Source of the DNA: Heptranchias perlo
Lineage: Eukaryota
Assembly: GCF_035084215.1 (NCBI RefSeq)
Contig: NC_090364.1
Span: forward strand, 4,216,001 to 4,280,000
Reading direction: 5' to 3'
Length of the DNA: 64,000 nucleotides
The notes beneath the pieces were generated by a model. The model made no database searches. It saw only the letters and a program-made list of their open reading frames with translations, and was not told the DNA's origin. Positions 1,710-64,000 of this stretch are shown here, piece after piece (position 1 is the stretch's first letter; each line of letters opens with the position of its first letter). Made by a program: the position numbers and the translations under genes.

Positions 1710-1814
1710 CATGGCGAGGCACACGTATGAGGTGTAGTACTCGAGGCTGATGAGTTTGTTGATGCCGTTCTCACTCTCTGGGTGAAAGTTCTGTCTCACC
1801 TGAGACTGCATCAT
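1710..1814 (-). CDS. FtA: ferritin subunit (divergent, possibly L/lower-subunit-like), exon 1 only; exons 2-4 presumably left of the window
   Basis: Reverse complement reads [35 protein letters not shown] followed by a GTAAAG donor at the canonical ferritin intron-1 position. Not in the ORF track. No exon 2 seen in 1-1709. Confidence 0.88.
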
Positions 1815-1911
1815 TCTCGGAATAGACTCTGCCCGCTCCCTCTGATCAGTGACTACATGAAACTGACTGAGCTTCTGTCAGGGGGGCCGGTGAGTTCAGG
1901 AACACACTCGG

Positions 1912-1928
1912 TTTATCATGCACCGCCC
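1912..1928 (-). promoter_or_regulatory. Putative FtA core promoter (GC box + GATAAA TATA-like element)
   Basis: Minus strand GGGCGG (1928-1923) then GATAAA (1917-1912) about 100 bp upstream of the ATG; same order as in the FtB promoter. Confidence 0.45.
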
Positions 1929-2134
1929 ACACACAGTGAGGGGAGGGCGTCAGAGATAGGCAGCTTGCAGAAGATATGGTTTATTACAGATTGCCGACCT
2001 CAGGAATGAACCAAGCTGGGTTACCGTGGACATGGATTATTGCAATTTTGAAAACACCGTTAATGTGAGACCACATGGATTAATGTTATTACAGAATGCA
2101 AATCATGGGGACCAATGGAGCTGAGTTATTACAT

Positions 2135-2335
2135 AGAGAGCAAACACCCAGGATCGAATGGAGATTGGTCACTGTAAGTAGACAGAGAGCAAACACCCAG
2201 GATCAAATGGAGATTGGTCATTGTAAGTAGACAGAGAGCAAACACCCAGGATCGAATGGAGATTGGTCATTGTAAGTAGACAGAGAGCAAACACCCAGGA
2301 TCGAATGGAGATTGGTCACTGTAAGTGGACAGAGA
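2135..2335. repeat. 49-bp tandem repeat x4, each unit with a CCAAT box
   Basis: gattgg at 2163, 2212, 2261, 2310 (period 49). Confidence 0.92.
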
Positions 2336-3254
2336 CCGTTGGCTCTTGCTGGGGTACAGTTCCACCAGAACTGACAGTCCACTGGTACCTTTGCCCAGCG
2401 GTCATTCTTCATGAGTGAGCCTAGATAGCGAGAGCCAATAGGTGAATCAACCACAGAAGCATCACTGTTGTGTCCAATCCTGTTCTCACCCGAGGTCCCC
2501 ACACTCTCCCGCAGCTGGTCAGTGATTAGAGCCAGGAGCCCTGGTTGAGTTTTCTACCCCTCCCTACCCTAGGGGTGCTGAGGCAGACTGTAGCACCTCA
2601 ACTGGCACCTAAGGTTGAGACCAGTTATGACAGCACAGATCAGGAATCAGACCCTAGGGACCCACCGGCCTGTGTGGCTCAATATTACAGCAGGTTGCAC
2701 ATTTACCCACTATGTCGTGAACACATTGGATAGGTTATCATCAAAAGGAGAGATTTGGAGAAAGAGGGACTAATTGGATAGTTCTTTCAAAGAGCTAACC
2801 AATTAGGAAACCTGCCGTCCTTACCCAGTCTGGGAGTATATGTGACTCCAGTCCCACCCCAACGTGGTGGACACTTAACTGTCCTCCGAAAGCGGCTTAG
2901 CAAGCCATTCAGATGTATCGGACCCCAAGGTTAAATGAGAAGACCCACCACCACCTTCTCAGGGTACCCAGCCTGTCCTAACTTCCAATGGACAATGTCC
3001 AAAGAGAAACACTTCTGTGTTTGCCGAAAACTTTTCGATTAGTGGAGAGCAACAGAAATAATGCGTTAGTAACTCACCAGCCACGGAAACAAGTACTGAA
3101 CACAGAACTCCGACTACGAACGGAACAAAAACATGGCACCCTCACTGACCCCCTCAGGATCCCCCTGAGAGCTCCCCAGGGACTGGGGACTTGTTGTAAA
3201 ACCAATATTGTGCAGCATTGTGCGACAATGGCTTGTGACTTCACCATCCCCTCC

Positions 3255-60317: not shown

Positions 60318-60587
60318 CCTGATTTCTCTAAGTAGTTGCTCACAAAGTTCCTTCCTCCTATTTATATACACCTGGGCAACAGCTGCCTTTAAAAAAGACC
60401 TGTGTGCCCAGATGATGAGTGACAATTTTCAGTAGCCAATCAAGCAGTTGCCTTCGCTCAGAACACCAATCAAGAAAGAGCCAAGGAGATGACACCCAGA
60501 ACCAATCAAAACTTTGAAGGATAAGCCCCATTGGCTGATAATTTAATAAGCATCCCATTGCTTTGACTTCTTTCAAACTTACATTTT

Positions 60588-61308
60588 CTTTCCGCGACCA
60601 GTGGGCACCACAGGGACTGGAGTGCATCCTGGACCGAGATAATAAAATTATAATTTGACACTTATTTTGGGTTTATTGGTTTACTGCACATGAACACACT
60701 CTAACCCCCCCCTTCTTATAAAAGGGAGCCTAAAAAAACACCCTAACCCCCCCTTTTTATAAAAGGGGGGCCTAAAACACAAAAAACCCCAAAAATAACT
60801 TAATTTCACAGTGAGGATTAAAATATTCAGAAGCAGGGGTTTGAAATGGAAATTTGATCTTCTGTTTGCAATTTATTGGTTGGTACTACTTCTGAAAAGT
60901 TCCACGTGTTTGTTATTTGCTGGTGGCTATGGGGTTGCTGCAATATCCAAATAGATCAGTCCTACACCCAGTGAAGGGGAGGGACCGGCAGGTCGGCAGA
61001 CGTCCTCGTGGGTCTGCTCCTGGCCCTGTCCAAGGTGGCTGTCCACAGGTCCAGCTTGGTCGCGGTCCGTGGGGGCGGTCGCTCCGACTGTCTGCTTCTC
61101 TTCCGCGGCATTCTCTGTGCTCGGGTGGCCCTGGAGAGGGAGCACGCGATGTCTGCCGGTGTGCTTGAGACTTTCCGCGACCGGTGGGCACTGCAGGGAC
61201 TGGACTGCATCCTGGATCGATATAATAAAACTATAATTTGACACTTATTTTGGGTTTATTGATTTACTGCAGATAAAAACACACCCTAACCCAACACAAA
61301 AAAAAAAG
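60588..61308 (+). mobile_element. Two Tx1-like LINE 3' fragments upstream of FtF
   Basis: LLLALSKVAVHRS...LEREHA...FRDRWALQGLDCILD (ORF 61008-61241); shorter copies at 60588-60800 and 54690-54845 (-). Confidence 0.7.
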
Positions 61309-61319
61309 GATTTTGGATT

Positions 61320-62050
61320 TGTTTCGCATTGGGAGCCAAGGGAAGTCAGTGAGGGCAGGGGCAATGGCAAAGAGAGACCAATGGCAGGATTGGATATGCA
61401 TGGCAAATGTTGAACATGTTGGAGTTTGTAGAGGTAGGCATTTGGGAGGCCAGTAAGGAGGGTGATTGAGAAGTTGAGTCTTGCGGTGACTAAAGCATAA
61501 AGGTTTCAGTAGTACAGCAGGTAAGATTGGGTGAAAGTGGGCAATATTACAGAGTAAGAAATATGTTGCCTGCCCAATCTTTAACTGGAGGAAGTTTTGC
61601 CTCACCCAAAACATGATGCCAGATCGGCAGTCTGATAATACAGGGTAGGTTGTGGAATTGAGGGTGCTGGTGGCGATGATGGAGAGGTAGTGTTCAGTGT
61701 CATCAGCATACATCTGGAAACTGACAGGTCTGTGGATAATGTTTCCAAACGTGAGTGAGGAAAAGTAGGGGGCCAAAAATAGAATGTTGGAGTAACTCCT
61801 GCAGTGATTGTGTAGGGGTGGGCAGAGATACTGGCTCCATTGGGCATGGAGAAGTGGAGCCTCTCAAGGGCAGTCCTCCAAAAATGGACAGCGGAGGATG
61901 ATCAGCTGCATTGGATGATAGAGAGAGAGAGAGAGATTAGGGAAAAGGACTGGTGCACCATGGATGCAGTATTAAAGGTTGTTATTGGAGACTTTGATTA
62001 GGGCTGGCTTGGTGCTGTGGGCCAGGCAGAAGCTAGATTGTAGGTGGGAA
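61320..62050 (-). mobile_element. Old L2-type reverse transcriptase remnant
   Basis: FQMYADDT..YLS and W...NFLQL motifs in ORF 61264-61776. Confidence 0.7.
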
Positions 62051-63288
62051 ACCAGCAAGAGCGTACCACTCAAACTAATGTTGAGTACATTGGCACTTGC
62101 CCTCCCTGTCCTTTTCTGTATTTAGCAACAGCTTGCTGCAGTGATCAAATCTCTATTTCAGTTTAGATGCAGGAAGGAAGTGCAAATAGAAAGCCTTAGT
62201 TAGCAGAATACTAACCCAGTTACACACGTGAGCTTTATTGATGCCTGCCTAAGTGGTCAGGGAAGGATTGTGCTGGGAGCCCACAGACATTTTGAGTAGT
62301 GGGAGTATAGACAATAAAAAAAATGGAATAAGCCATATAGAAAAACAGATAAACGATTAAAGAAAAGTGGGACAAATACATACAGCAGGGCGAGAGGCTC
62401 GAGAACCAGTAACCACATCTTAAAATGTGGGGGAGGAGACAGATAGAAAGAAATGGGATGTGGTATGACTGTTTAGTAGAGCAAATATCAGCAAGGGAAC
62501 CTTATTGAATCCATACAGCCTAGAGCAGCTGCTCAAGCAGAGGCTAGAAGCATACACAAATAAACAAGGAACTGGAGGAGAGAGGCTAGAAAACCAGGTA
62601 ACTACAGGAGACACCATTAACAGTAATTTATGGACTCATTGGCAGCCAGCTGCATGGACAACCCTGTTATGAAATTCCTGTATTTATTTTTTCATTACTC
62701 TGGTATTAAGCAGTTTGAGACAGGGAAATTTTCTTACCTACTAAAACCAGCAACAGGGATTCCTAGCCTCAAATTCAGGAGTTATCCTCATAAGTAGGTT
62801 TACGTGATCATTGAACAATTAAGAATTTTTTTTCCCCCCCATGGTGGAGGGCTTTATTTAAAAAAAACCAGCAAAAGCTATATTATGTTGTAACATGTCT
62901 AAATATAAAGGAACAAAGACATTCCTCAGCCCTGGCAAGAGTAGTGTTGTGAAAAGGAATAGGTCAGGAAATGTCTTACTGTAATCATCTTAACAGCACA
63001 TGGACCCAAACGATCAGAATTTGACACCATTAGCTACCTAGCAAGGCACTGAAAACTTTAGCCATCCAGTCCCACATCACATGGACCCTTCCCCTCCCAA
63101 CAAAAGTGTTAGTCATTTTAAGGACACGACATTCAATACTCATTGTTTTTATTTCCAGTCACAGTGAGTTACTACAATACTTCAGAGTGATGCTTTGTAC
63201 AACTTACAATCAAAACTTCATACACCACAGATCATTCAATGTACAGGTTGGAGTGTCTGCAATTACAGAATATAATCCTGCAGTAAAT

Positions 63289-64000
63289 TCAGTCACTCTC
63301 CCCCAGGGTGTGCTTATCAAACAGGTACACTCCCATGCCATTCTCAGGGGCTCCCAGTCTCTTCAGGTTGGTGATGTGATCTCCAAGCTTCTTGATCATC
63401 TTCACTTGTTCATCCAAGTAGTGGGTCTCCAGGAAGTCACGCAACTGGAAAAGGGAGATTTTCATTTAAGGCACCTATTTCATTAAGATTGGTTTATTAA
63501 ACAAATTGCTTCAGGCACCCTGCATTGATTCACTTTCTCCTACTCAAGGAGAAAGCAGTCCTAAAAGTGACTATTGCACAAGAATCAATTCCTACTCCAA
63601 ACCTTCCCTTCCTGCTTTGTTTTCAGAGGTCGTCTCCACGTCTGCCTCTCACTAAAACTGGTACTAATCGAGGCATCTAGTAAACTGAATAAACAGATGG
63701 GCTTTTGAGGGTCTGTTCTCAGTGGACAGTTTGTGCAGATCCAGCGGACTCTGGTAAGGTGGCAGAGGATGCGAACAGTAGTGACCACACTTCAAGAGAA
63801 GTTAAATTGGCTGTAAAGTGCTTTGGGACATCCAGGTCACTATACAAGTGCAAGTGCTTCCTTTCATAAAGGAAACATTAGAAACTTACATGAGGGTCTG
63901 TCCTCTCAGTGGACAGTTTGTGCAGATCCAGCAGACTCTGGTTCACATTCTTCTCCATCTGCAGAGCTCTCTGCATTGCCTCCAGACCATTGCTCCACTC
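63289..64000 (-). CDS. FtG: ferritin subunit, partial (exon 3 cut at the window end, exon 4 complete)
   Basis: Exon 3 64000-63890 ([17 protein letters not shown]...TERTDPH, GTAAG donor); exon 4 63444-63289 [18 protein letters not shown]...HTLGESD*. Confidence 0.92.

Follow-up and report, generated by a model that had tools for sequence, protein, structure and literature searches.

The question raised by this locus is whether neighboring ferritin genes divide the handling of iron among themselves or simply add to its dosage. In this study, we analyzed a 64,000-nucleotide stretch of the Heptranchias perlo genome (NC_090364.1, positions 4,216,001 to 4,280,000 of the forward strand), which is referred to here as the window and for which seven ferritin paralogues with an apparent division of labor had been proposed from the sequence. 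The order and strands of that proposal (-,+,-,+,-,-,-) are correct: the window holds five complete four-exon ferritin genes (FtB to FtF) and two genes, FtA and FtG, that are each cut by an edge. Since tandem ferritin arrays are already known from fish, seven genes alone are ordinary; our verdict is that the number of genes and the array as such are unexceptional and that the interest lies in a conserved, leader-bearing gene, FtC, together with a charge-reversed gene, FtD.

FtC (33345..38198, minus strand; exons 38198-37941, 35387-35241, 35124-34999, and 33500-33345) encodes 228 residues, and its spliced model is identical, letter for letter, to the 228-residue H. perlo protein P0002, annotated as "ferritin heavy chain-like." The product contains a Ferritin domain (PF00210; 129 bits) and has four long helices in its AlphaFold model (mean predicted local distance difference test [pLDDT] score, 68.5). 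As predicted, the gene bears a leader, consisting of 52 N-terminal codons (38043..38198, minus strand) that form a candidate mitochondrial presequence; the leader is unstructured in the model (pLDDT <50), which is uninformative. Four sequencing runs were mapped to a stretch that left out FtA, FtB, and FtG. Three of the runs (X1, X2, and X4) represent one sample and the fourth (X5) represents another species, and their RNA nature was guessed from the spliced joints in the contigs. Contigs of X1, X2, and X4 covered the leader exon with no differences, and the first FtC intron was spliced out; in X1 and X2, the leader exon ran on into a piece that has 28 differences from FtE exon 2, which is the exact distance between FtC and FtE.

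FtC orthologues that carry the leader were identified in 12 sharks and 9 batoids (21 species in all), those of Heterodontus and Rhinoraja after excision from over-long models; no chimaera or bony-vertebrate FtC was present among the matches listed (top hits or cluster representatives), which is a weak negative. All of the leaders begin M-G/A-S/R, and their length changes are in-frame. In none of the 15 orthologues checked does another Met precede helix A; therefore, the leader must be translated. A mis-read 5' untranslated region (5'UTR) is ruled out by this lack of any other start Met and by the conserved start. The ferroxidase residues E27, Y34, E62, H65, E107, and Q141 (human H numbering, transferred via the macaque chain) are kept in 14 of 14 orthologues. 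No iron-responsive element (IRE) was detected at FtC by an Rfam scan of the whole window. The Pristis FtC isoform X3 has an unrelated first exon.

Presequences are typically loose in sequence and fixed in composition, and it is on composition that a mitochondrial presequence is the best reading of the FtC leader. Acidic residues make up only 4 of the 666 leader residues from 14 species, which comprise 15% Arg and 18% Leu. Shuffles of the H. perlo leader DNA that contained no stop rarely lacked acidic codons (P = 0.023) or encoded at least 11 Leu residues (P = 5e-5), so that neither the lack of acids nor the Leu excess comes from the GC content. The peak hydrophobicity of 15 FtC leaders ranged from 0.94 to 2.08 and their charge from +2 to +6; two mammalian FTMT leaders lie within these ranges (hydrophobicity, 1.36 and 1.99; charge, +4 and +3), whereas three signal-peptide-type ferritins do not (hydrophobicity, 2.97 to 3.19; charge, -1 to +1). 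A search of the ESM Atlas with the leader returned one lead at 0.76, below the chance level.

The phylogenetic data came from two trees, of 79 and 39 rows, neither of which included teleost M or mammalian L chains. In both trees the B, C, D, and E types each group in a starred clade of their own with relatives from other cartilaginous fishes; the predicted classes are therefore real and old. FTMT nests with mammalian H chains (100/96), and the H clade (96/89), which includes chimaera and skate H chains, excludes FtB to FtF. FtC is not an orthologue of FTMT, as a forced clade of the two was rejected (approximately unbiased test, p-AU 0.0103). By analogy, FtC most likely works like FTMT without being a member of the FTMT gene family, and on the sequence data we consider it reasonably probable that FtC is a mitochondrial ferritin of independent origin. 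We postulate that a duplicate ferritin gained an exon-1 leader inside a CpG island, without an IRE, and so gave rise to FtC. The protein is translated from the leader ATG, the sole Met ahead of helix A, and, if it behaves like FTMT, would be imported via its basic, acid-free presequence, would be cut probably near an RR-G/A motif at residues 45 to 47, and would assemble in the matrix as a ferroxidase-active, homopolymeric cage.

Several observations weigh against this interpretation. The leader Arg count is explained by GC-rich DNA (at least 8 Arg residues; P = 0.59 in the shuffles), extensions of mammalian H chains that come from a mis-read 5'UTR are likewise basic, and the control sets are tiny (two FTMT and three signal-peptide-type proteins). 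Gly makes up 18% of the FtC leader versus 5% and 14% of the two FTMT leaders; an FtC leader profile gave no match to the FTMT leaders (best E value, 1.6); and the leaders of H. perlo, S. canicula, and Heterodontus open with 18 to 19 uncharged residues, a possible weak signal peptide. Furthermore, upstream ATGs and short upstream open reading frames (uORFs) are present in the FtC 5' region, and the deep nodes of the trees are poorly supported, with 15 of 36 open.

FtD (41259..45137, plus strand; exons 41259-41360, 43468-43614, 44237-44362, and 44985-45137; 175 residues) had been described as ferroxidase degenerate, and the substitutions His65Gln, Glu61Lys, and Glu140Lys are indeed present. K57, K61, Q65, and K140 were found in 12 of 12 full-length shark FtD proteins (13 species, window included), all of which retain E27, Y34, E62, E107, and Q141. 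His65 is a ferroxidase ligand, and E57 and E136 of frog M ferritin are transit carboxylates, and activity is inhibited when these are removed (PMC10114856); the four-residue offset in the table of that paper places them, by our own mapping, at positions 61 and 140. The net charge of FtD is -4 to +1, versus -7 to -12 for the B, C, E, and F proteins, although an FTMT precursor also scores -1. Based on these substitutions, FtD, a conserved subunit with a more basic inner face, is probably noncatalytic or oxidizes iron poorly; the notion that it is a minor component of cages is a guess. A mammalian-type L chain is ruled out, as E62 is retained and there are no added carboxylates. A search of the ESM Atlas with an FtD orthologue returned ordinary ferritins only, and no batoid FtD was seen among the matches listed (top hits or cluster representatives), again a weak negative. 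The C and D models have neighboring accessions or lie on contigs of equal length in several sharks, such as the whale shark and the zebra shark, which is indirect evidence that FtC and FtD are linked in several other sharks.

The two genes meet head to head at a CpG island (38199..38554; GC content, 0.66; observed/expected ratio, 0.99), which is the shared start region of FtC on the minus strand and of an alternative FtD transcript on the plus strand; the FtC and alternative FtD contigs start a few dozen bases apart, on opposite strands, at the island edge. The alternative FtD first exon (38526..38683, plus strand) is spliced to exon 2 in RefSeq model P0123, the product of which lacks helix A and is not expected to fold like a regular subunit. 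An X1 contig joins an exon at 38551-38680 straight to FtD exon 2, and an X4 contig carries the alternative first exon with a gap that exons 2 and 3 would fill. The Carcharodon FtD isoform X2 also has an unrelated first exon. Five AANATGGCG motifs, which we take to be YY1 sites, lie in the FtC 5' region (38314-38538, minus strand). All five matches in the window fall within the FtC/FtD start region, and this number was reached in 0 of 100 shuffles, for a pattern that was picked after inspection of the DNA. YY1 marks bidirectional and mitochondrial-gene promoters. An NRF1-like pattern was not enriched (4 matches, reached in 24 of 100 shuffles). ATGs within the AANATGGCG motifs open short uORFs, and the over-long Heterodontus and Rhinoraja models contain translated traces of similar motifs upstream of the leader.

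We tentatively propose that sharks and rays evolved and kept their own intron-bearing mitochondrial ferritin, FtC, with an origin separate from that of the mammalian retrogene, and that sharks keep beside it, at a single bidirectional promoter, a noncatalytic FtD. With its charge reversed and lysines in place of both iron-transit carboxylates, FtD might act as a natural brake or as a non-iron component of cages.

The strongest competing explanation is that of the original prediction, that all classes co-assemble in tissue-specific ratios and so tune one iron-storage system; we regard it as possible but rather doubtful. Mammalian H/L mixing is known (PMC13207978), and the classes are old, transcribed, and under purifying selection: Nei-Gojobori ratios of nonsynonymous to synonymous substitution rates (dN/dS) were 0.09 to 0.25 over 10 pairs of complete genes, as pairwise values of which the deep pairs are close to saturation, and 0.12 to 0.13 for FtG versus FtE and FtF. 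FtC, FtD, and the E type were all present in spliced contigs. The outcome that would have spoken against the original prediction, with most copies silent or evolving neutrally, therefore did not appear. However, an FtC residing in mitochondria would be kept out of mixed cages, the FtD contigs of H. perlo in X1 and X4 begin with the first exon that removes helix A, and the E-type copies share the same catalytic residues. The E-type genes are FtE (51518..53852, minus strand; exons 53852-53751, 53110-52964, 52274-52149, and 51673-51518; 176 residues), FtF (57508..60317, minus strand; exons 60317-60216, 58977-58831, 58150-58025, and 57657-57508; 174 residues), and FtG (63289..64000, minus strand; edge-cut exon 3 at 64000-63890 and exon 4 at 63444-63289), and they are, as had been proposed, near identical (93 to 98% protein identity). 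A contig equal in length to that of FtC encodes 10 more distinct E-type proteins, and one 90% cluster comprises 180 members (40 of the 180 were read), so that the supposed trio is the start of a large young array. In such an array, dosage is favored over division of labor, and FtE to FtG would be dosage copies undergoing birth and death. The division-of-labor claim thus survives in part: the classes are real, old, and under purifying selection, but the FtE-to-FtG array points to dosage. The contrast that was drawn with mammals, with their H and L chains and few retrocopies, understates what is known, since fish have several H/M isoforms (PMC4117605) and tandem arrays (PMC10746142).

It is unlikely that the FtC leader has no role in targeting and is either an unstructured extension tolerated on a cytosolic or nuclear ferritin or a binding tail of such a ferritin. 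Such an extension would fit the variation in leader length (23 to 60 residues) and sequence, the ease with which GC-rich DNA alone yields Arg, Gly, and Pro, and the lack of structure in the model; however, the avoidance of acids and the Leu excess go beyond the DNA background, the start and the frame are conserved across sharks and rays, and variable sequence with constant composition is typical of a presequence.

Somewhat less probable still is a role of the leader in secretion or membrane anchoring, including through myristoylation at Gly2, which would make FtC a secreted or membrane-bound ferritin like those of insects. Insect ferritins carry signal peptides (PMC13207978), some shark leaders have a Leu-rich uncharged start, and Gly2 is present in 13 of 14 FtC leaders. 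Nevertheless, leader hydrophobicity is well under that of the signal-peptide-type ferritins, and Arg residues interrupt the hydrophobic part in rays, the whale shark, and the sawshark. Myristoylation calls for Ser or Thr at position 6, which most of the leaders lack, and Rhinoraja has Ala2.

Least likely of all is that FtD is decaying in H. perlo and is mainly a by-product transcript of the promoter: the contigs bypass its canonical exon 1, and the alternative N termini of H. perlo and of Carcharodon isoform X2 are unrelated, but the canonical exon is intact, has a TATA box, and is covered in X5 (with slight depth of its bin in X4), the H. perlo FtD branch is short (0.057), and, among 40 of 120 rows, all four exon-4 differences from X5 are synonymous. 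The two exon-1 differences in the same rows both change the residue to that of other sharks.

The iron-regulated class is represented by FtB (27594..29257, plus strand; exons 27594-27695, 28218-28364, 28485-28610, and 29102-29257; 176 residues), the ferroxidase residues of which are intact. Its assignment to that class holds, as the sole IRE of the window lies upstream of it (27490..27525, plus strand; Rfam IRE_I, 42.6 bits, E value of 2.3e-6), with no second element at an E value of ≤1 across the whole window; FtB is best explained as an IRE-controlled cytosolic ferritin. Between FtC and FtD lies a broken exon-1 copy (39417..39512, minus strand) with a stop at codon 4, an 8-base deletion, and a lost donor, which is nearest to FtD exon 1 (76 of 94 bases identical). 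Upstream of it is a decayed IRE (39597..39637, minus strand) that is 76% identical to the FtB IRE over 41 bases but has lost the hairpin; Rfam did not recognize it even at an E value of ≤10, and with FtB the upstream region gave a match score of 48, a value that 0 of 200 shuffles attained. The bin containing the broken exon had no cover in four of four runs, which is not proof of silence. The broken exon and the decayed IRE are the fossil of an IRE-bearing duplicate, and their arrangement suggests an IRE-controlled ancestor of the cluster and later loss of the element from duplicates.

A DNA profile built from the exons, together with translated searches, located the ferritin-like pieces across the whole window. 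FtB to FtF have GT-AG phase-0 introns and open frames. The broken eighth exon-1 copy, the second FtD first exon, and a 50-base fragment in FtG intron 3 that repeats the end of exon 3 (63706-63755, minus strand) had been missed previously. Only exon 1 of FtA and exons 3 and 4 of FtG lie within the window; the array therefore continues beyond both edges, as had been proposed. FtA exon 1 (1710..1814, minus strand) encodes 35 residues, on which the earlier L-like label rests, and FtA may be of the "lower subunit" type: it keeps E27, has Cys at position 34, and has an EYYTSY motif in common only with elephant-shark "lower subunit-like" proteins among the proteins compared, and 21 of 34 residues are identical to one of these, although several other ferritins score equally high. 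The E-type copies differ in detail: FtG has Arg in place of the three-fold-channel Cys130 (exon 4, 63289-63444, minus strand), FtE has Trp at position 63 (exon 2), and near the C terminus Val is found in E, F, and G versus Glu in B, C, and D. Junction-spanning E-type contigs were not assignable to a single copy; X4 gave difference-free contigs over the 3' regions of FtE (50877-51536) and FtF (56871-57544), matches that could be common to copies outside the window. The intergenic DNA consists of reverse-transcriptase fragments of the long interspersed nuclear element type (4400-5820, plus strand; 23450-25420, minus strand) and tandem repeats, including long G/C-skewed minisatellites at 7264-9970, 10581-13497, and 36751-37924 (units of 34, 28/30, and 23 bp, respectively), the last of which fills FtC intron 1 directly after the donor. 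There are no flanking genes inside the 64-kb window.

The locus as a whole is best explained as the non-H ferritin locus of cartilaginous fishes, in which old, specialized single-copy genes stand beside a young array. The label "M/L locus" would be an inference only, because the backbone of the trees is unsettled and teleost M and mammalian L chains were absent from the set. The locus already carries automatic RefSeq names; many shark RefSeq ferritin models (P0003, P0008 to P0013, P0017, and P0078) seem to fuse adjacent array genes, and automatic copy counts at this locus are consequently unreliable.

A literature search outside which most subscription journals lay listed no title or opening of an abstract that describes a shark ferritin cluster or a shark mitochondrial ferritin. 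Mitochondrial ferritin was stated in 2014 to be expressed only in mammals, Drosophila, and plants and to be absent in most vertebrates (PMC4118045), and a review from 2024 names, in its available part, no additions other than plants and Drosophila (PMC11719527). If its separate elasmobranch origin is true, organellar iron buffering would have evolved repeatedly in vertebrates, and FtC would offer a comparison case for what FtMt is for, given that FtMt knockout mice have little phenotype. FtD, likewise, amounts to a naturally occurring double mutant at the two transit carboxylates that were examined in frog M ferritin.

The layout of this locus is reminiscent of ferritin genes in other fish. 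The four-exon, three-intron structure of vertebrate ferritin genes (PMC4117605) is that of FtB to FtF; salmon has five ferritin isoforms with four exons (PMC4117605), and the hadal snailfish has 14 fthl27 copies, mostly in tandem (PMC10746142). The teleost fthl27 arrays and H/M isoforms resemble FtE to FtG in being tandem, near-identical copies, a likeness that does not imply orthology, as the trees contained no teleost M or fthl27 chain; unlike the H. perlo cluster, they have no leader-bearing member mentioned in the available parts of PMC10746142 and PMC4117605. FtC and FTMT have in common a basic, acid-poor N-terminal leader of approximately 50 to 65 residues, an intact ferroxidase center, and no functional IRE (PMC4118045). 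FTMT, however, is intronless and falls inside the mammalian H clade, whereas FtC has three introns, is not part of the H clade, and bears an unrelated leader. Drosophila mitochondrial ferritin (cited in PMC4118045 and PMC11719527) offers a second parallel: insect ferritin 3, the mitochondrial type, is likewise a separate leader-bearing ferritin, and the Bemisia ferritin 3 leader is similar in hydrophobicity and charge, but the insect protein belongs to a different lineage and its leader is Lys rich where that of FtC is Arg rich. Two unnamed, non-vertebrate-looking ferritins (P0255 and P0265) also have basic, acid-poor leaders and are possibly further independent mitochondrial ferritins. FtD, for its part, has lost the site-A His65, as have the noncatalytic L chain, the amphibian and teleost "lower subunit," and FTHL17. 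The salmon lower subunit shares K61 and Q65 with FtD but has K27, Q107, and S141, whereas FtD keeps E27, Y34, E62, E107, and Q141; unlike the other noncatalytic chains, FtD combines lysines at positions 57, 61, and 140 and forms a clade of its own (100/100).

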